DNA of 26,567 nucleotides from a virus (taxonomy: Duplodnaviria; Caudoviricetes): positions 1-26,567 of IMG/VR virus record IMGVR_UViG_3300020413_000063; one strand, written 5' to 3'. Each line of letters opens with the position of its first letter. The stretch's first letter is position 1. The notes below the pieces were generated by a model. The model was not told the DNA's origin and did no database searches. It saw nothing but the letters and a program-made list of their open reading frames with translations. Below, one piece after another: positions 880-15,474 of the stretch. The position numbers and the translations under genes were made by a program.

Positions 880-956
880 TATTTCCCCTTCTTTCCACCT
901 TTAGGTTTTGGGGGTCTACCTCTAGTTGATCCATAAGTTCCTTTTCCTTTTGGCAT
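879..956 (-). CDS. 25-aa basic microprotein with AT-hook-like RGRP core
   Basis: MPKGKGTYGSTRGRPPKPKGGKKGK; TAATG coupling to the terL stop (954-958) and to the next gene (877-881). Confidence 0.8.
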   Translation of the reverse strand: MPKGKGTYGSTRGRPPKPKGGKKGK

Positions 957-2368
957 TATAAAACTCCTCTCAAGTTACGTTTTAATGGTTTATTCCATCT
1001 ATTCGCATGACCACCTCTTAAAGCAATCATGTTGTCATGCGCCATGACTAGGCACAAAGCATCTGCCCTATCTGGGGAAGATAAACCCCTCTTTCTCATT
1101 TCATCCTTAGATTCAGCTTTTGCCTTACCATTGGATGAAAAGCTATATTTCACACTCACCATTTCACTAATGAGTTTTTGATCATTGGGTAACTTACAAT
1201 CTCTATTTTCTAAAAATGCCTTGAGTTTAAACCATAGCTCACTTCTAAGGTTCATATAGTTGTTCTTCATGGATGGGCTTTCACTTACATTAATGCCAAT
1301 GGCAGGCAATCCCAACTCAGCTAGTCTATCAACACAACCAGCCCCTAAACCAATGCTATCAATAAAAATTTGGGTAGGTTGATCGGTGGGATGTAAGGCA
1401 TCATATTCAGCTTTTACTCTTCCACAGAGTTGCATCAAATCTAACCCCTTCCAAGTCATAACATCTTGAATGACATTCCCCTTACGTTTGCATAAAGCAC
1501 TATGATCATTCCCAAATCGACTTACATCTAACCCCCATGTAATTTCTGCACTTGGATTTTCTTCTATCTCTCTTCTCATTGCTGATTCACATAAGTGATA
1601 GGGAATAATGGTATCTTCATCTGTCTTAGGAAAATCGCCCATAACACGCACAGCAAAGGCATTGCTTTCTTCACCATATCGTTCTTTCATTTCCTCAACA
1701 AAATCTTGGGTCACTAATGGACTATCTAAACAACTCCATCTCCTTCTCCACCAAGAAGATTTAGGTGACATTTGCGTATCAAAAAAAGTTCCACTAGTTC
1801 TAGTCGGGTTTGACAATAAAAGGGTCACACAATTTTTGCCTGACATTGATCCACTCGCTGCTTCAAAAGTCTTTTCATGCACAGCACTAGCTTCGTCAGC
1901 CACAAGAAGGACACTAGCTCTAGGACCAGATGCGTGAACACCAGCCAAAGCTTCTGGTTGCTCAGCTCTTGAAGTCTTGGCACTTATAAAAGCCTCACTT
2001 GGACTAGCAATTAATTCAACTCTATCACTCTTCACATTAAGCAAATTTTTAAGAGCTGGGGGTAGTTTGGTAATATGGGATTTTAGTTCGGAGAAAAGAG
2101 CATCAAATAATTGCTGAGAACTGGGGGCTGTTACGACTATCCGAATAGGGTATCTCGTAAATAACATCCAAATCATTAACCAAGATGCACAAGTGGACTT
2201 TCCAGTTCCATGACCACTTCTTACACTTAATCTTCTCTCACCATCACTTACTGCTTTTAACAATTCTTTTTGATAATCAAATGGGTCAACACCAATTACC
2301 TCTTGAACAAACTTAACGGGGTCATTCCCATATTTTTCTAAAAATTCTTGAAAGGGATTAGTGGACAT
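956..2368 (-). CDS. terL: Terminase large subunit
   Basis: Walker A SGHGTGKS, Walker B LLVADEA, motif III SNP, RNase H-like nuclease GLDVSRFGND...SPDRADA. ORF is open to 2413, but ATG 2368 (MSTNPF) minimises overlap with the upstream gene. Confidence 0.95.
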   Translation of the reverse strand: MSTNPFQEFLEKYGNDPVKFVQEVIGVDPFDYQKELLKAVSDGERRLSVRSGHGTGKSTCASWLMIWMLFTRYPIRIVVTAPSSQQLFDALFSELKSHITKLPPALKNLLNVKSDRVELIASPSEAFISAKTSRAEQPEALAGVHASGPRASVLLVADEASAVHEKTFEAASGSMSGKNCVTLLLSNPTRTSGTFFDTQMSPKSSWWRRRWSCLDSPLVTQDFVEEMKERYGEESNAFAVRVMGDFPKTDEDTIIPYHLCESAMRREIEENPSAEITWGLDVSRFGNDHSALCKRKGNVIQDVMTWKGLDLMQLCGRVKAEYDALHPTDQPTQIFIDSIGLGAGCVDRLAELGLPAIGINVSESPSMKNNYMNLRSELWFKLKAFLENRDCKLPNDQKLISEMVSVKYSFSSNGKAKAESKDEMRKRGLSSPDRADALCLVMAHDNMIALRGGHANRWNKPLKRNLRGVL

Positions 2369-2576
2369 ATTCATTTCCATAAGCATGAGGAAATAATCTT
2401 CTAAAATTTTCATCTGCAGCGTGTTCCAAAATAGAGCAAGTATCTATCGGATCTTCACATGATGACACAAGATGAATATTCATTCCTTTAACACCCAACA
2501 TAATCACTTCATCAAAGTGATCTCCTCGAATTCTCTCTAGCTCTTCCTTAGTCAGGTATTTTGGTGAGTTTGTCAT
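2358..2576 (-). CDS. Hypothetical protein between terS and terL
   Basis: 72-aa ORF in operon orientation that exactly fills the terS-terL gap. Confidence 0.6.
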   Translation of the reverse strand: MTNSPKYLTKEELERIRGDHFDEVIMLGVKGMNIHLVSSCEDPIDTCSILEHAADENFRRLFPHAYGNEYVH

Positions 2577-2991
2577 TGTCTAGTGGCTTTGCGTTTCTAA
2601 GAGCATCAATATGCAAGTCACCAACATTAATTTGAACAGTCGCTTGTTTTTGTCCAAACATTTCGGGGTTATCACAACCAGCTAGCCATTTTCTAAGATT
2701 AGCTTGCTCTCTTGCTTTAGCAATCGCATTGGGGCTTTCCTCAACATTATCAATTATTTCTAAAGCTTGCTCAGCAAATGCCTCACCTCTCTCTTTTCTC
2801 GCACCTTGCAATAACTGTTTTTGCTTTGGGTCTTTATATAAATTGCTCACTAATAATTTGCGACTAACCCCAAATGACCTAGCTATCGCTGTCATGCTTT
2901 CACCAGAACAAACTCTATCCAAAATATTTTGGAAACCACCACTCTTTTCAATGTCAGCTAACATTTGTCTTTTTATTGGTTGACCTGCCAT
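2548..2991 (-). CDS. terS: Terminase small subunit (Sf6-like)
   Basis: N-terminal HTH (GESMTAIARSFGVSRK), helical ARKERGEAFAEQALEIID, RKWLA...PEMFG motif; upstream of terL. Confidence 0.85.
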   Translation of the reverse strand: MAGQPIKRQMLADIEKSGGFQNILDRVCSGESMTAIARSFGVSRKLLVSNLYKDPKQKQLLQGARKERGEAFAEQALEIIDNVEESPNAIAKAREQANLRKWLAGCDNPEMFGQKQATVQINVGDLHIDALRNAKPLDNDKLTKIPD

Positions 2992-3159
2992 TTCATAAAT
3001 ATAATTTGAAAAAATTTTTTTTTCATGTTAATTATCTACACAACCCCCTCTTGTATGGGTGTATTTCTCGACCTACATCAACATCAATAACAGTGGGTAT
3101 AGGGGGGGTTATTTTGAGAAAGTGTCCGAAAACTGGTTATATAACACCCTCTCACCACC

Positions 3160-3172
3160 TAAGTCATTGATT
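3160..3172 (-). promoter_or_regulatory. IHF-binding consensus site
   Basis: Minus strand AATCAATGACTTA is an exact match to WATCAANNNNTTR, in non-coding DNA with an AT-rich flank. Confidence 0.55.
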
Positions 3173-3186
3173 TCATTATATATTGT

Positions 3187-3214
3187 TTGGCGCATAATCT
3201 ACATTATGTTACTT
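3187..3214 (+). other. dif: dif-like XerC/XerD recombination site
   Basis: TTGGCGCATAA-TCTACA-TTATGTTACTT; 21/28 identical to E. coli dif (GGTGCGCATAA-TGTATA-TTATGTTAAAT), with the 11-6-11 layout and both inner 8-bp arms exact; intergenic. Confidence 0.8.
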
Positions 3215-3216
3215 TT

Positions 3217-3534
3217 TTATTCAAAAAGTCTCGCGTGAGCGTTCTTTGGTGCGTGTGCGCCGTGGCTAGGTTGAAGGTCTAGTTTCCATAATCTATAGTT
3301 ACCATCCTTTAACTTTCTTATGCATGATGTACCCAATGGGTAACACTCATTCATAGCACTTCTTGCCCTACCAATCTCATCACTAGGTACATCAATAAAC
3401 TCATTAGGTTTCATATCAACAACGATAGAATAATACTTTCCTCTTTCATCCCCCTTCAAGTATTCCTTATGCTTCTTTTGTGTAGTCACCTTTAAACTCC
3501 CCAATGTTTCTAATAATGTCATCTTGATATTCAT
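3217..3534 (-). CDS. Hypothetical protein
   Basis: 105-aa ORF in operon orientation; start uncertain because it overlaps the DUF6378 gene. Confidence 0.6.
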   Translation of the reverse strand: MNIKMTLLETLGSLKVTTQKKHKEYLKGDERGKYYSIVVDMKPNEFIDVPSDEIGRARSAMNECYPLGTSCIRKLKDGNYRLWKLDLQPSHGAHAPKNAHARLFE

Positions 3535-3817
3535 TGTTCTTATTGATCACTATCGCAATGCCACAATAGTTAATAATGTCTTGCCAACTATCCAAATGAT
3601 TAGGTGACTTCATTAGTCTAGCTAACTTGAGTGTTATGATTTGCAAGATTACATCTGTCTCAACTAAATCCTCATTGAGTTTATTCTTGAGAATGAGGTT
3701 AAAGAAATCCTTTATATCCCCATGATTGACAATAGCATTACCATAACTTTCACCTCTATCATCTAATAGCTTACTTGCCTCAAGTATTTCATTTTGTATT
3801 TTCTTATTAATATTCAT
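3467..3817 (-). CDS. DUF6378-like protein (all-alpha, nucleotide-metabolism-associated phage family)
   Basis: DRGESYG...LKLARL...HLDSWQDIINY motifs. Confidence 0.8.
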   Translation of the reverse strand: MNINKKIQNEILEASKLLDDRGESYGNAIVNHGDIKDFFNLILKNKLNEDLVETDVILQIITLKLARLMKSPNHLDSWQDIINYCGIAIVINKNNEYQDDIIRNIGEFKGDYTKEA

Positions 3818-4712: not shown

Positions 4713-4889
4713 CTATTGTTCATCTCTAGTAGTTGTACCATTGCTAACCCCCATTGTTTTTGTGTTATGAACCTCAATATTGTCCACTCCAAATTGTATT
4801 TCTAATCGAAAACAATCCTCACATAACGCAATGTCATCATTAATAATAAAGACTATTGCATCTCTTTTACATTTAGCACACAAGCTCAT
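4713..4889 (-). CDS. Small CxxC...CxxC zinc-binding protein
   Basis: MSLCAKCKRDAIVFIINDDIALCEDCF...; ATG 4889 overlaps the upstream stop (ATGA). Confidence 0.6.
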   Translation of the reverse strand: MSLCAKCKRDAIVFIINDDIALCEDCFRLEIQFGVDNIEVHNTKTMGVSNGTTTRDEQ

Positions 4890-5716
4890 ATCAATTTTCC
4901 TTGTTGAGATGATTTGTAAGCTTTTGACCAAGATGTTTTGGTCTTGCCATAGTTTCTAAAACCACCCTTAACTCTCTCTCCATCCTCATCATAAAGAACT
5001 TGGAAGAACTCAGGGAAATGCACATGAATAACATGGTGATCCCATGCAACTTTATCAGGGGTAGTTTCATCCCATAAAGTTGATTGACTTCCAAGGCTCA
5101 TGTTTTCAAAGCAATATTCTTGACTAACCCTATTCCCATAACCCTTCGATAATAGGCTCAAGAAAAATAAGGTATCTTCACCAAATCTAACTTTAACTAA
5201 TGGTAATTCTTTTAAAATATCTTTGAAATCTTTTCCATTAAACCATACAGCACTACCTAATGATGTATTGTTTCTATAATAAACAACATCTGGAATATTC
5301 TCAGAATGAGAACATCCACAAAATGTAACATTAGGCTCTTCTAACCATTGAGAGTATAATCGAAACATATCCAAAAGATCATGGTGAGAACAAATCCTTC
5401 TTGATTTCTCCATGTTATCTTCACCACCAAATCTTTTGGCATTTCTTCTATAAAACTTTATGTCATCATCAAGAACTGCATATTTCATATTGCAACCCTC
5501 TTGATAAATAATCTTTCTAGTTTTGGCTAAACATAAGTAATCATCTAAATTCACTTTGTCTGGCAACACTAAATAATCACAATCATAATGATATTTGGGT
5601 CTTTCCCATTTTTGAACAACCATAGTCACCTTTTCTTGTAGTTCTTTGGGTAAACTCTCATAAGTAATTTGATTATCTACTCTATTAACAGTTGGGATGA
5701 ATATTCTTTCTATCAT
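4886..5716 (-). CDS. TAGT/GREB1-like GT-A glycosyltransferase (copy 2)
   Basis: IFIPTVNR, LAKTRKII, VLDDD (DxD), GEDTLFFLSLLSKG motifs. Confidence 0.75.
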   Translation of the reverse strand: MIERIFIPTVNRVDNQITYESLPKELQEKVTMVVQKWERPKYHYDCDYLVLPDKVNLDDYLCLAKTRKIIYQEGCNMKYAVLDDDIKFYRRNAKRFGGEDNMEKSRRICSHHDLLDMFRLYSQWLEEPNVTFCGCSHSENIPDVVYYRNNTSLGSAVWFNGKDFKDILKELPLVKVRFGEDTLFFLSLLSKGYGNRVSQEYCFENMSLGSQSTLWDETTPDKVAWDHHVIHVHFPEFFQVLYDEDGERVKGGFRNYGKTKTSWSKAYKSSQQGKLI

Positions 5717-6597
5717 GCGACTTTCTCCATTGTGTTGATATTGACCAACACCATCCCATAATTATCTACACCACTTGGAATATTTAGCCCCTCTCTCATA
5801 ATGGGTTTGTTCTTCCTAAATGGTGTGTAATCTACATGATGGTGCCAGCGATTAAATTTCCAAGTGACAGACGCAACATCAGGGTGCATCTCTTCCAACA
5901 TCTTTGACTTATTCATAGTGCCTTCATGGGCATAGAATTCTTCCGTATTGCCCCCACCTAATCGCTGTGTTGTGGCTTTTTCTTGTAAGAATGCATTGAA
6001 TTGAAGAGTGCATAGCCCATCTTTAAGAACTCTTAGAGATAGGTCGGTATCTTCATTATATCTACCTCTCCACCTATACTCACATGAGTTATCAATCAGC
6101 AAACATGAGTAAATTCTAGTATTGAGCAAAAATGGTGGGTAAACCTCACTTGCAAAGCAAAATTTGCAATAATTCAAGCCACTAATAGGAATGTTTGTAT
6201 ATCTATCTACAAAATCCTCACTTGCTTTAAACAATGCGCCACTATTACAAATATTCTTGGCATTCCTATTAAAACGATAGAAATTATAAATGTTATCATC
6301 CATCACCCAATGCTTTTTAGCACCTATGGAAATAGAATGATCCCATGCAAAATTCCTAGCACCCCCTGGGCCTTTTGACTTACTATCCCCAAGATCATCA
6401 AAAGTGTCATAATTCTTGAGATAGTTTGGGTCTAAGATTAAAACCTTATCTTTTCCTACCTCATTGACGTAATTTTCGTACTCTAATTCCTCAACTACTA
6501 TCCAATAAGGCACTTGCATTCGATCTAAAGACTTTGACGTTAGACGGGATTCCCAGCGACCCTTAGACACAATGTAGATGGGATAGGTAGGTATCAT
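5713..6597 (-). CDS. TAGT/GREB1-like GT-A glycosyltransferase (copy 1)
   Basis: PIYIVSKGR, GGARNFAWD, WVMDDN, NTRIYSCLL, RYNEDTDLSL, GGGNT motifs. Confidence 0.85.
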   Translation of the reverse strand: MIPTYPIYIVSKGRWESRLTSKSLDRMQVPYWIVVEELEYENYVNEVGKDKVLILDPNYLKNYDTFDDLGDSKSKGPGGARNFAWDHSISIGAKKHWVMDDNIYNFYRFNRNAKNICNSGALFKASEDFVDRYTNIPISGLNYCKFCFASEVYPPFLLNTRIYSCLLIDNSCEYRWRGRYNEDTDLSLRVLKDGLCTLQFNAFLQEKATTQRLGGGNTEEFYAHEGTMNKSKMLEEMHPDVASVTWKFNRWHHHVDYTPFRKNKPIMREGLNIPSGVDNYGMVLVNINTMEKVA

Positions 6598-6863: not shown

Positions 6864-7071
6864 TGACCTCACCCATTCTAGTTCCAAACTTTTTGCCCGG
6901 GATATGAACTAGCATTTTCTTTTGAACTAGCTCACTCCTAATCGCTCTAATTGTGGGTACTGCTAACCCCACCATATCTTTCATCTCTGCTAAAGATGGT
7001 GGGTAGTCATTTTTTTCTATGTATCTTTTGTATGCGTAAAAGACGATTTTTTCATTTGGTGAGCTAAACAT
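6856..7071 (-). CDS. Stand-alone LexA-type winged-HTH DNA-binding protein
   Basis: YIEKNDYPPSLAEM...L..K.ML...PGK resembles the LexA N-terminal domain; no peptidase domain; TAATG coupling at 7069-7073. Confidence 0.75.
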   Translation of the reverse strand: MFSSPNEKIVFYAYKRYIEKNDYPPSLAEMKDMVGLAVPTIRAIRSELVQKKMLVHIPGKKFGTRMGEVNA

Positions 7072-8078
7072 TAATATCTCCAATCTGACTTAATTGTAGG
7101 TTTCTTGGCTCTCTCTGACCTAGCAGGCTTTGCTGGTACATTTTTTTGTGGTTGAGCTTTGTAATTTCTTGTCTTTCTCTCCAAAGTAAAAATTTCTTCC
7201 CCTAAACTATCCTCATTATAAAGAACCCCCTTCTCATGCATTCCCATAACATCCATAAGTTGAGCCTCTAAAGTTTCTCTTAATTTTTCACATGATTTGA
7301 TGGTTTTGACACACTCATATAAATCCAATGCGACTTGCTTATGGGTTTGAGTAAAATCTACAATTGGTAGATCACTCTCACTTTTTGGATAAGCTTCAGC
7401 ACTATCTTGAGTATCCATTGAGGGATAATAGTCTGGACCCTTTTTACGATTATAAAAGTCTTGTATTCTCTCAATGATTTCATTTTGCATTTCTTTATCT
7501 GGCTCATAGATAAATAGACGCAAAGATGAACCCCTATATAAGACACTAACCATGACATATCTTGCTTTATTACCATGCGCCTCATAGCAAAGATGACCAC
7601 CTTGAATTTGCAAAACACCTCTTTCAAGTGGTGGCTCATCTTCAATAGAGTGTTGTGTTGATTTAGCCTCTGTTAGAATTACATCACCTTTATCAAGCTC
7701 TATAAATTCCTTTCCCTTGAGCTTACCCATAAAACGAATATTCTCTGTTTCATGTATTTTTTGATTAGTATTTGATGTAAGAATTCCATCTAAACTCACC
7801 TCAAAAAAATCTTCTTTAAATCTAAAGACTTCGGTGATGTTTGAATTGACACTACAATTAAGATGTTCACCACTCACATTTAAAATATTAGTTTCATGAA
7901 TGTTTCCCCATTGTGTGTACTCATTCCCATTAAAGGGGGCTAATGGAAGATAATCAGGGTGATTATTTGCTAAATGTGATCTTAATAAACCATTTCTTTT
8001 GAGCCACCTATTTAGACCCCAAAGAGTAGGCAATACTGATCCTGTGATGAGATCATCACGAGTAAGTTTTCCAACCAT
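7071..8078 (-). CDS. YqaJ-like (lambda Exo family) exonuclease
   Basis: ITGS, WGNIHE, SLDG, EAKST and QIQG motifs of the PD-(D/E)XK viral exonuclease; GGAG RBS. Confidence 0.85.
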   Translation of the reverse strand: MVGKLTRDDLITGSVLPTLWGLNRWLKRNGLLRSHLANNHPDYLPLAPFNGNEYTQWGNIHETNILNVSGEHLNCSVNSNITEVFRFKEDFFEVSLDGILTSNTNQKIHETENIRFMGKLKGKEFIELDKGDVILTEAKSTQHSIEDEPPLERGVLQIQGGHLCYEAHGNKARYVMVSVLYRGSSLRLFIYEPDKEMQNEIIERIQDFYNRKKGPDYYPSMDTQDSAEAYPKSESDLPIVDFTQTHKQVALDLYECVKTIKSCEKLRETLEAQLMDVMGMHEKGVLYNEDSLGEEIFTLERKTRNYKAQPQKNVPAKPARSERAKKPTIKSDWRY

Positions 8079-8090
8079 TTTTTTCTCCGT

Positions 8091-8342
8091 TTATTGTGAC
8101 AAATAAACAATAAAAGAGAGAGCTATAATTAGGATTGTTAAGACTGCTTCTATACAAGTCTGACCAAACGAGATTAGGTCAGGTGAGTTAGCTTTGACAG
8201 ATTTAATAAATCTATATGTTCTACTAATAATTTCAGTTAAGATAATATATATTATGCGCCCAAAATGATAAAACACATTTGATATACCTATATTATTGCC
8301 TCTTTTAATGCCTTTTCTCATATTTTCCTCAATTTTTACCAC
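8091..8342 (-). CDS. Hypothetical membrane protein
   Basis: Hydrophobic C-terminal segment AVLTILIIALSFIVYL; start uncertain. Confidence 0.5.
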   Translation of the reverse strand: MVKIEENMRKGIKRGNNIGISNVFYHFGRIIYIILTEIISRTYRFIKSVKANSPDLISFGQTCIEAVLTILIIALSFIVYLSQ

Positions 8343-8360
8343 ATTTAGCCGTATGTAACC

Positions 8361-8762
8361 CTAATCTTGGTTACTACCACTAGATGTAGTGTTTCTAGTT
8401 TTCTTGGAAGTAACATTATAAACTCTTACTTCCTTTTCTTTTTCAAGTTTAAGATCATGATTAACTTTAGTTATAATACTTCTAAAACTCATGACTTTAA
8501 CATTATAAGGAATATTTGCGCCTTTTATGTCTTTTAGGTCTTTAACTAGTTTCTCTAAATGTTTGACTGCTATAGCTAAATGATTAGTGGTCATTGATGG
8601 AATATCTAATCTTGTACTCTCATTATCCCCTAACAATTTTTCTCTATATCTATTCATATAAAAACTATTTTTTCTAGCTTGTGGAGTAGATCGGTCTGCA
8701 TAATGGCTTTCTCTAGCCAAATAATCTTCCTTGTCACTACTCTTTCTAAAATTCATTAACAA
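8361..8762 (-). CDS. Hypothetical protein
   Basis: 133-aa ORF, TTG start preceded by AAGGAG. Confidence 0.7.
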   Translation of the reverse strand: MLMNFRKSSDKEDYLARESHYADRSTPQARKNSFYMNRYREKLLGDNESTRLDIPSMTTNHLAIAVKHLEKLVKDLKDIKGANIPYNVKVMSFRSIITKVNHDLKLEKEKEVRVYNVTSKKTRNTTSSGSNQD

Positions 8763-8828
8763 ACACTCCTTATACTTTCACAATAAATGTAAAATTTCTT
8801 TTTAAAAGTTTTTTATATAGACTTGAGT

Positions 8829-9308
8829 TTAAGATATGAACTTGAGTTTATCGCGTGAACTCACATATTCTGTATAATAATATTCTGTGCTTTTAAGCAT
8901 GATATCATCTGATTTGTAACACATGATTTTTGCAGAGATATGACTTTCAATGGCGATAAACCACCCCTCTTCTACACAATGATTAAATACTTTAGATACA
9001 AAAGCTTTTTTCAACTGTGGAAAATAATCTCTGACTTCTTTTTGGGTAATACATTTATCTTGTAATGTTTTAAGCACAACGAAAGCACCAATAATTCTTT
9101 TATTCATGTGACTTCTAAAATAATGGGTAGCTCTACGCATTTGCGGATCATGGGGTATGGGATAGTTTTGGTAATTAAAAAACGATAGTTCGGTTGCCAA
9201 ACTGTTTATGATACCCTCTTTAATATTGTATGGTGGTGGTGTAGCTTGAATTTTTTTTGCTTTCATATCCATGATCTTTCCACTTCTTTGATGTTCATTT
9301 AAATTCAT
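8829..9308 (-). CDS. Hypothetical protein, possible winged helix
   Basis: ITQKEVRDYFPQLKKAFVSKVFNHCVEEGWF is wHTH-like; GGAGA RBS. Confidence 0.55.
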   Translation of the reverse strand: MNLNEHQRSGKIMDMKAKKIQATPPPYNIKEGIINSLATELSFFNYQNYPIPHDPQMRRATHYFRSHMNKRIIGAFVVLKTLQDKCITQKEVRDYFPQLKKAFVSKVFNHCVEEGWFIAIESHISAKIMCYKSDDIMLKSTEYYYTEYVSSRDKLKFIS

Positions 9309-10026
9309 CTTTTTCTCCTAGATTTTGGTTAATAATTCTTCTTAATACTTGAGGAAACCATCTTGTCTTTCCCTTAAAGGTAAGAATTCCCCTCATTTCT
9401 AATTCTTGGCATATCCCAAATTCAGTAACATTTGGAAATTCCAATTTAATTTTCTCAATAATTGGCCAGACTTCTTTACGAAACTCCGCCCAACGTCTTA
9501 CATTAGCCTCATGAGCCTTAGTTAATTTTTTGGTACGTTTTGTATTACCAATCTTCACCCCCTTTTCTACGGCTCTCTTTTGACCTCTCTTGATGCGATT
9601 TGATTGCTCTAATAACTTTTGCTCTGCAATCATTCTCATGCCCCTAAGAAAAGTTTGATTTGTGGCTGGACTAAAATTGGGTTTTAAATCAACACCAATA
9701 ATTTTAACCTGACTTTCTAACATCATGGTAATGGCTTTAAAATTACCACTCACAATTACAAAGTCATTCATGATCAAATCAGCAAAATTTGATTTAGCTA
9801 TGGAAAGAGCCTCTTTTAACCCATCCCAAGTTCTACGATTTGTTTCGGTTACTTCCTCAATGATTGACCAATCACCACCATTGAGATGAAAAAGAATACT
9901 ATCTTTAGCTCGTTCATCATCCTTCAAAAGATAAACGACTTTTCTTCCATAATGCTTAACCACCGTTTTCTCCCTAGAAAATGTTAGCTGAAAATAAGGA
10001 GATTTCAAGTCTTTCATATTATACAT
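9295..10026 (-). CDS. Serine recombinase/resolvase homologue, predicted catalytically inactive
   Basis: Retains WSIIEEVTE, LKEAL..AK...ADLI, IAEQ...SNRIKRGQKRAVEKGVKIG (helix E) and the C-terminal RGILTFKGKTRW...LRRII domain; the YxRVS and KLDRLxR motifs are absent. Confidence 0.75.
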   Translation of the reverse strand: MYNMKDLKSPYFQLTFSREKTVVKHYGRKVVYLLKDDERAKDSILFHLNGGDWSIIEEVTETNRRTWDGLKEALSIAKSNFADLIMNDFVIVSGNFKAITMMLESQVKIIGVDLKPNFSPATNQTFLRGMRMIAEQKLLEQSNRIKRGQKRAVEKGVKIGNTKRTKKLTKAHEANVRRWAEFRKEVWPIIEKIKLEFPNVTEFGICQELEMRGILTFKGKTRWFPQVLRRIINQNLGEKDEFK

Positions 10027-12026: not shown

Positions 12027-12221
12027 ATGCTATCAAAGAAATTTGTTATGGAACTAAAGAAAAAACAACAACTAATTTATCTAAATAAATCAGTAGCTAG
12101 TCAACTAAAGATAATGTCAAAAAGGTATGATCTAAGTATTAGCAAGCTAGCTGAGATTATTTTGAGAGATGGGGTTGAGCAGTTAAAGAAAAATGGCATA
12201 GGGAAGTTAAAAATTGACTAG
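12027..12221 (+). CDS. Ribbon-helix-helix (Arc/CopG-like) regulator
   Basis: QQLIYL strand followed by two helices (SQLKIMSKRYDLSISKLAEIILRDG); ATG 12048 is an alternative start. Confidence 0.75.
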   Translation: MLSKKFVMELKKKQQLIYLNKSVASQLKIMSKRYDLSISKLAEIILRDGVEQLKKNGIGKLKID

Positions 12222-12555
12222 TAGTGCTAAAAGAAAAGGTTATGTACTAGAGGCAAATGTAGTCAAATTTTGGACTGAGCTAGGCATCAAATGTAAGAGA
12301 ATTTTGGGTTCTGGTGCATTTAAACATTACTCAAAATCTCTTGCGTCTGATGTTAATTTGAATGGTCTTAAAGTCGAATGTAAAAGACGCAAATCAGGAA
12401 CTGGTTTTATGTCACTTTACAATTGGTTTGACCAAGATGATGCAGACCTTCTTATAGTTCATGCAGATAGAAAAGAACGGCTTTATGTTTTGAAAGAAAC
12501 TCAATTTTTAAAACTTGTGACTAGCGATAGTTGGACAAAAAAGAAGGAGAAATAA
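12214..12555 (+). CDS. Holliday-junction resolvase-like PD-(D/E)XK nuclease
   Basis: KRKGYVLE, SGA, SDV and VECKRRK motifs. Confidence 0.85.
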   Translation: MTSSAKRKGYVLEANVVKFWTELGIKCKRILGSGAFKHYSKSLASDVNLNGLKVECKRRKSGTGFMSLYNWFDQDDADLLIVHADRKERLYVLKETQFLKLVTSDSWTKKKEK

Positions 12556-15389: not shown

Positions 15390-15474
15390 ATGGAAATCTT
15401 TTCCATACTTTTCTCCAAAACTTCCCCCCTCTTCAACCTCCCTTTCTTTAAAAAAACATAGGGGGGGGATTTTT
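15390..15474 (+). ncRNA. Candidate small RNA / bidirectional terminator with anti-SD-like loops
   Basis: Hairpin ATGGAAA-TCT-TTTCCAT, linker TTCTCC, second stem CCCCCCT/AGGGGGG enclosing ACCTCCC, then a T tract; upstream TTTAAA-N17-TAGAAT. Confidence 0.5.

Follow-up and report, generated by a model that had tools for sequence, protein, structure and literature searches.

A dif-like XerC/XerD site in the packaging region of a marine podovirus-like phage and its relatives, with a possible role in genome circularization

The stretch of viral DNA analyzed here (26,567 nucleotides of IMG/VR record IMGVR_UViG_3300020413_000063, hereafter the window) represents 70% of a marine podovirus-like genome, of which another contig, G001:C4, supplies the remainder: The two are 99% identical over their overlaps, and the joined map closes at about 38.1 kb. 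Binning with a gammaproteobacterial MAG weakly suggests a gammaproteobacterial host. Between the start of terS (2991) and the stop of an ORF at 3217–3534, the window holds a 28-bp sequence (3187–3214), read directly from its letters and overlapped by two short plus-strand ORFs, which has the two 11-bp arms, the 6-bp spacer and the dif-like inner bases of a XerC/XerD core site. The features that the initial annotation had reported are in place: the 11-6-11 layout with spacer TCTACA, identity to E. coli dif at 21 of 28 positions (counted by eye against the E. coli-type dif in L026, L045 and L068), an IHF box separated from the XerC arm by 14 bp (3160–3172 on the minus strand, matching the IHF consensus motif), and the lack of a tyrosine recombinase gene among the 42 window ORFs. 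No tyrosine integrase is encoded by the 15 ORFs from the rest of the genome either. Elsewhere in the window, two tandem TET-associated glycosyltransferase genes (PF20691, phrog_842; 4886–6597) suggest DNA base glycosylation.

Table 1. Features of the window bearing on the dif-like sites, with coordinates in the window.
Feature	Position	Strand	Remarks
terL, large terminase	956..2413	-	phrog_2 E 2e-41; 49% identical to phiM5 TerL
terS, Sf6-like small terminase	2548..2991	-	PF20901 E 1e-14; phrog_1482
C-run / G-run / A-T-run element before terS	3009..3108	-	G-run 3102–3108; predicted genome end near 3073–3075
Predicted direct terminal repeat, with dif-like site and IHF box inside it	3075..3430	.	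right limit uncertain, about 3240–3770
IHF consensus box	3160..3172	-	14 bp from XerC arm; optional accessory site
Putative XerC-binding arm	3187..3197	+	TTGGCGCATAA; inner ATAA almost always kept across the relatives' 39 dereplicated sites
6-bp spacer	3198..3203	+	TCTACA; hypervariable among relatives
Putative XerD-binding arm	3204..3214	+	TTATGTTACTT; fifth-position G kept
YqaJ/RecE-like exonuclease	7071..8078	-	might serve as backup, yielding circles by homologous recombination
Second Xer-like site	8235..8262	-	TGGGCGCATAA, TATATA, TTATCTTAACT; 23.5 bits; candidate attP or operator
133-aa helical protein, no known family	8361..8762	-	directly upstream of second site; conserved (alignment A5); 120 homologue clusters
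Serine-recombinase homologue without YxRxS catalytic motif	9295..10026	-	phrog_125 E 9e-5; Atlas features 0.95 to Recombinase clusters; alignment
RusA-like Holliday junction resolvase	12214..12555	+	phrog_244 E 1.5e-11; might complete a junction begun by XerC

An arms-only matrix, trained on 13 distinct sites from 24 inovirus or host-type loci, gives the site 24.6 of 31.5 bits, and matches of at least 23.5 bits arose at 0.003 per simulated window (300 simulations). Relatives were gathered as the best 80 of the TerL matches listed from each of three collections, taken with alignment A1 (13 of its 15 non-window rows come from site-bearing loci) and ranked by likeness to the window TerL; a site was called at 19 bits or more and no more than 2 kb from terL. 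The scan of relatives that the initial annotation had proposed reveals positional conservation near the terminase genes: Among TerL-selected viral loci with 1.5 kb of DNA upstream of terL, 36 of 49 carry such a site there at a distance of up to 2 kb, and 24 of 43 metagenome loci with enough upstream DNA carry one at most 2 kb from terL; these fractions are not population estimates, and they come from counts that ignore kinship and sets that share some contigs. No site was found in 386,533 other bases of the viral loci or in 650,587 bases elsewhere in the metagenome loci. Grouping the viral TerLs leaves site-bearing clusters at 13/17 (90% identity) and 4/8 (80% identity); genome contigs with a TerL match have the site in 6/54 cases, and retraining the matrix on phage sites turned up a site in 4 of 27 negatives. 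In relatives, the site is located upstream of terS or between terS and terL; of 39 dereplicated sites, 26 have the XerC arm toward terL and 13 the XerD arm.

The pattern extends beyond this terminase family. An exact dif pattern occurs in about 890 viral stretches, and when 80 dif-pattern viral loci were examined in a reverse test, 49 had it beside terS or terL, 24 were of inovirus or host type and 7 were unassigned; the TerLs beside these sites form five groups that are mutually unrelated by BLAST. The host XerCD use inferred in the initial annotation is well supported by such arms, conserved next to terminase genes across families. Phage C72C1 (OQ984150.1), a member of the TerL family whose site is placed between terS and terL and followed after 45 bp by a run of C residues, is the sole site-bearing record among 21 GenBank records, 17 of which were read near terL only, no site being found in the other 20; its record states neither host nor genome ends, and we found no paper on it. 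Pelagiphages HTVC010P, 034P, 028P, Greip, 106P, 027P, 023P, Hodr and others have no site in the parts examined. Site-less relatives also make up 13/49 viral and 19/43 metagenome loci. In six relatives (L394, L405, L410, L266, L301 and L382), dif is absent and other direct repeats or palindromes occupy the same slot upstream of the C-run, which suggests that the genome end may host interchangeable protein-binding modules. Variant arms (L227, L168, L170, L183, L281 and L294) occur in relatives as well as in contigs binned with Gemmatimonadota, Myxococcota and Acidobacteriota, and may track host Xer systems.

While the arms are held nearly fixed, the spacer drifts. The 39 dereplicated sites contain 35 distinct spacers, and even L016, whose TerS is 98% identical to that of the window, has TGTTGA. 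Among pairs with TerLs at least 95% identical, spacers are unlike in 41/95 and inner arms differ at 2.7% of positions; among pairs at 80–90% identity, spacers are unlike in 685/701, and across these TerL pairs inner-arm differences amount to 3–9% of positions. This drift would be expected if the recombination partner were always an identical copy; a free spacer fits binding alone equally well. The drift should not be overinterpreted, in that chromosomal sites, too, carry 37 spacers in 99 sites; the three commonest proteobacterial-type spacers (TGTATA, TATATA and TCTATA) account for 42/99 of these versus 4/66 phage sites; 7 of 47 phage spacers recur among the 99. The spacer-edge rules of true dif are kept in the phage sites (T at position 13 in 0/66, A at position 17 in 64/66), as is the fifth-position G of the XerD arm (position 22 of the site), present in 39/39 terminal sites and lost in 7/9 of the second sites described below. 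That G is a XerD contact (PMC9226527), and chromosomal dif spacers are conserved within species (PMC2731167). With chromosomal dif and its XerC/XerD/FtsK system (PMC2731167, PMC5357621), the phage site shares the 11-6-11 layout, inner arm bases, better-kept XerD arm and spacer-edge rules, but it is phage-borne, its spacer is hypervariable among close relatives and it shows little KOPS polarity: The one KOPS in the window is far from the site, and KOPS are aimed at the XerD arm in 3/39 sites. A chromosomal dif would be a single terminus site with KOPS polarity, whereas phage genes lie on both sides of this one, and FtsK-gamma was found in 0/15 records. From its sequence, 3187–3214 is likely a working target of host XerC and XerD.

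The IHF box is tied to the Xer site, yet it is optional and occurs on either arm. Counted by themselves, IHF boxes in the window are at chance level (7 found versus 4.56 expected, with 14 of 100 shuffles reaching 7); unlike this count, their spacing from the arm is above chance. Near 67 dereplicated sites, 15 of 30 exact boxes fall in an inward-pointing slot of 12–16 bp that represents 3.7% of positions, so placed at 15/67 sites, and a relaxed motif occupies this slot at 13/40 terminase-linked versus 0/24 control sites. Among the 39 sites, the box is on the XerC side in 3 and on the XerD side in 5. The initial annotation had read the box by analogy with cer and psi; its co-occurrence at fixed spacing stands, but that reading proved too narrow, since the box accompanies 15/67 sites, on either arm, and also chromosomal Cellvibrio dif. 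In Cellvibrionaceae, chromosomal dif (L333–L336 and L340; in L334 flanked by glycogen genes) is accompanied by an IHF consensus at phage-like spacing, 14 bp away from its XerD arm, and IHF may act at some host dif sites.

The site also has a constant relation to a run of at least six C residues, which lies on its terL side in 36/40 cases (2–128 bp away in 35) and on its far side in 0/40, the 40 including one weak match, L014; this geometry holds in both site orientations. In phiM5 (MF074189.1), which has the same TerL family and C-run element together with its own integrase and no dif-like site, GenBank annotates a terminal repeat of 357 bp that ends 43 bp from the C-run start and reaches 314 bp upstream. 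Transferred to the window, the phiM5 end would fall near 3066, and the repeat would take in both the IHF box and the dif-like site. Runs X4 and X5 each have a contig starting at 3075, and G001:C4 has an end at 3073, which places these ends 34–36 bp from the C-run; relatives' contigs often break at C-runs, which could explain the ends at 3073–3075. Among eight listed pieces in X4, X5, X6, X7 and X8, depth is highest for the contig that carries the site, at 1.48–2.44 times the median, a comparison of single figures per contig, among listed pieces only, that rests on these five fragmented runs (X1 and X2 are single contigs and X12 is a mix of relatives). Other phages share 31–35 bp around the site. 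With the phiM5 analogy, the contig ends and the depth as hints, the dif-like site likely belongs to a terminal repeat some 350 bp long. The connection with packaging drawn in the initial annotation has gained support: Relative to the C-run, 36/40 sites are located where the terminal repeat is predicted, and none is located opposite. None of 38 loci examined contains two terminal copies within a single record. A 54-bp repeat of G010 was rejected as a terminal repeat, since it looks like an assembly overlap, and a pile-up of contig ends 400–600 bp upstream of terL (10/72) was set aside, many of these ends mapping to C-runs. The G001:C4 copy (L319) is short of about 21 bp around the terS start relative to 2984–3009 of the window. 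Another C-run plus G-run, at 15424–15468 between two convergent gene blocks, is possibly a terminator or a second structural element.

In phage P1, loxP is a tyrosine-recombinase site near the packaging start that is duplicated in virion DNA and recombined with its own copy by Cre. The reading that we tentatively prefer, which may well be right while falling short of probable, is a host-driven likeness of loxP: Host XerCD would recombine the two terminal copies of the site, closing the incoming linear genome into a circle. Its elements would be arms conserved beside the terminase genes, a spacer left free to drift by a partner that is always an identical copy, and a site placed by a repeat of about 350 bp at both genome ends. 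XerC would then form a Holliday junction independently of FtsK, with an IHF bend assisting in some phages, and completion of the exchange would fall to replication or to the RusA-like resolvase. The product would be a unit-length circle from incoming linear DNA, and the same site could later cut monomers from multimers. The proposed likeness is that of a terminal duplicated site recombining with its own copy; unlike P1, the phage has no recombinase for it, the site copies host dif with a 6-bp spacer between two unequal arms, its duplication would take the form of a short, fixed repeat, and it occurs in at least five terminase families. It would be loxP-like at most, and not a member of the loxP class, since a cognate phage tyrosine recombinase is absent. 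XerC-first exchange without FtsK, completed by replication, is described for CTX and ColE1 (PMC9226527). Counting against circularization, no activator was found, phiM5 has no site and many relatives are site-less.

Host XerCD might instead resolve circular dimers or concatemers during replication or in an episomal state, as at cer and psi, with the proximity to terS coupling resolution to packaging. A free spacer and fixed arms would be expected likewise, IHF at fixed spacing could serve as a topological filter and the phage YqaJ exonuclease could generate multimers; we nevertheless consider multimer resolution unlikely, though a serious rival, as a site with this function may sit anywhere, yet here it is always just upstream of the end-marking C-run, and no partition gene was found among the 42 window ORFs or the 15 from the rest of the genome. 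The plasmid sites share with the phage site a self-self Xer recombination (proposed here for the phage) and a nearby DNA-bending accessory site, but cer and psi have about 180 bp of PepA/ArgR/ArcA sequence, placed on the XerC side (PMC5357621), whereas the phages have one IHF box, on either arm and at a minority of sites. The recombinases of the relatives are also in favor of multimer resolution, as they are of circularization, in that site-less relatives own an intact resolvase-type enzyme: An intact serine recombinase is encoded in three whole genomes, all without the terminal site (a small, non-independent sample), and a homologue without the catalytic motif accompanies the terminal site in 4/4 cases (window 9295–10026, L144:966–1634, L342:935–1624 and L351:4517–5293). 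YxRxS is absent from the top 15 profile matches of the latter's clade; a profile search for the homologue in 48 fragments gave no match and is uninformative.

This motif-less homologue heads an operon before a second dif-like site (8235–8262), both overlooked in the initial annotation; in this site the XerC arm is intact, the spacer is the host-type TATATA and the fifth G of the XerD arm is replaced by C. A XerC arm follows the stop of the 133-aa gene by 72–135 bp in 8 of 9 distinct loci (background 0.025), the nine including the window's near-identical copy and a 90% relative; across them the spacer is TATATA in 6/9 and the XerD arm is always damaged. A small membrane ORF runs through the site in frames that differ between loci, and the constraint therefore appears to be on the DNA. 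A shared operon, with the motif-less recombinase, often a helix-turn-helix gene, a 120–140-aa protein and then a Xer-like site in a small membrane-protein ORF, is seen in the window (8235–10026, minus strand), L323:8791–10634, L549:3494–4762, L552 and L553; the close relative G002 has neither the second site nor a recombinase match. For the 133-aa protein we found no Pfam or PHROG match and no isolate homologue; its predicted structure is weak (pLDDT 64) and has no fold match, and its predicted complex with E. coli XerD scores 0.21.

A combination of an intact XerC arm, a host-type spacer and a degenerate XerD arm is that of a TLC-type attP, and on sequence grounds the second site appears a better attP candidate than the terminal one, with an operator role as likely as attP. 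The terminal site could circularize the genome while 8235–8262 serves as attP for insertion into host dif, aided by the 133-aa protein or the motif-less recombinase; the attP reading can be combined with circularization, and we regard this two-site arrangement as quite improbable. Its anatomy, the fixed place of the site and the different frames speak for it. Against it, no XafT-type activator domain was found (DUF3653, the XafT-linked domain, occurs in 0/15 records; an unrelated activator could act instead), and the 120 homologue clusters of the 133-aa protein are all on contigs of at most 38,157 bp. The layout resembles that of the TLC attP (PMC9226527), and xafT adjoins attP in Vibrio IMEX, the elements that integrate at host dif (PMC12715192). 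The two sites were rejected as partners in an inversion or pdif-cassette role: Their spacers differ, core genes lie between them and there is no strand-switching joint.

No less improbable, in our judgment, is a role in binding only, in which XerC and XerD, with IHF, would form a roadblock or landmark near the genome end, acting against nucleases or SMC-type defenses or shaping the terminase complex, with no strand exchange. IHF acts at packaging sites of lambdoid phages. Binding alone predicts a free spacer too, and the other repeats in the same slot of dif-less relatives agree with it; so does the unloading of SMC by XerD without recombination in Bacillus and Staphylococcus (PMC9226527). What speaks for strand exchange is that the phage sites preserve the 6-bp spacing, two different arms and the base preferences seen at the spacer edges in true dif; that both orientations occur (26 versus 13) is a further point against binding alone.

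Integration at host dif through the terminal site, which the initial annotation had offered as an option, now appears very unlikely, given a spacer that changes even between near-identical phages and a search for host junctions that yielded none. The terminal site resembles the attP of IMEX (CTX, VGJ, TLC, dif-type double jelly-roll phages and gokushoviruses; PMC12715192, PMC7062461 and PMC9226527) in being phage-borne, dif-like and without an integrase, PF00589 (tyrosine integrase) being absent from all 15 site-bearing records; it is also absent from 4 site-less ones, which counts against integration. Nor need an unusual spacer preclude insertion, as IMEX attP spacers can differ from host dif in VGJ (PMC5357621) and gokushoviruses (PMC7062461); some phage spacers do recur in chromosomes, and the hosts are uncultured and poorly assembled at dif. 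But here the site belongs to the packaging locus of a tailed dsDNA phage with no prophage junction and no XafT-type domain, and the attP-like anatomy is that of the second site. No prophage bounded by attL and attR at host dif was found in the collections, which may not include the host genomes. Past the site, phage primase, helicase or exonuclease genes follow in 14 of the 16 long metagenome loci, and the other two are unassigned (28 of 40 selected ORFs searched), with recognizable host genes in 0/16. No terminase match lies near chromosomal dif with a G-run on the XerC side (0/99, 19 of which have only about 300 bp of flank); the pattern of site plus XerC-side IHF box has no matches in genomes, and that with a XerD-side box has nine, the annotated ones being host or inovirus loci. 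Seven loci checked by eye on TerL genome contigs of 75–440 kb have no site near terL, and joints and loose ends of assemblies match other phages' sites, not host DNA, with none in a second set of runs. Finally, that the terminal site is a chance match or a functionless vestige is scarcely credible and largely refuted by the conservation counts, since even in AT-rich DNA, and with an IHF box by itself at chance level, such a match is expected so rarely per window, and its position is conserved while spacer and flanks drift.

The terminal site is real and widespread, and would be a novel form of Xer exploitation. Published Xer hijacking consists of integration by tailless or filamentous elements and of plasmid resolution; IMEX are described as filamentous, satellite, tailless or microviral in PMC12715192, PMC5357621, PMC2731167, PMC7062461, PMC9226527, PMC9618062 and bioRxiv 10.64898/2026.06.12.731946, and our searches of the openly accessible literature found none that describes dif sites beside the packaging genes of tailed phages. 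The geometry relative to the terminal repeat, the spacing of IHF boxes on either side and the second site are new here. A fuller scenario, possible but doubtful as a whole, is that abundant tailed phages from aquatic habitats, with terminases of at least five families, use a dif mimic in their terminal repeats to have XerCD circularize the genome before phage genes are expressed, and that the present lineage swapped a serine resolvase for it while retaining an attP-like second site, together with a new activator module, to insert into host dif on occasion. The site would mark genome ends, arm variants could point to hosts, and the host factors xerC, xerD and ihf would be testable with C72C1 if it can be cultured. 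If circularization is its function, XerCD would have a third role, in the lytic cycle of tailed dsDNA phages, and this would explain how small podoviruses without a recombinase close their genomes.
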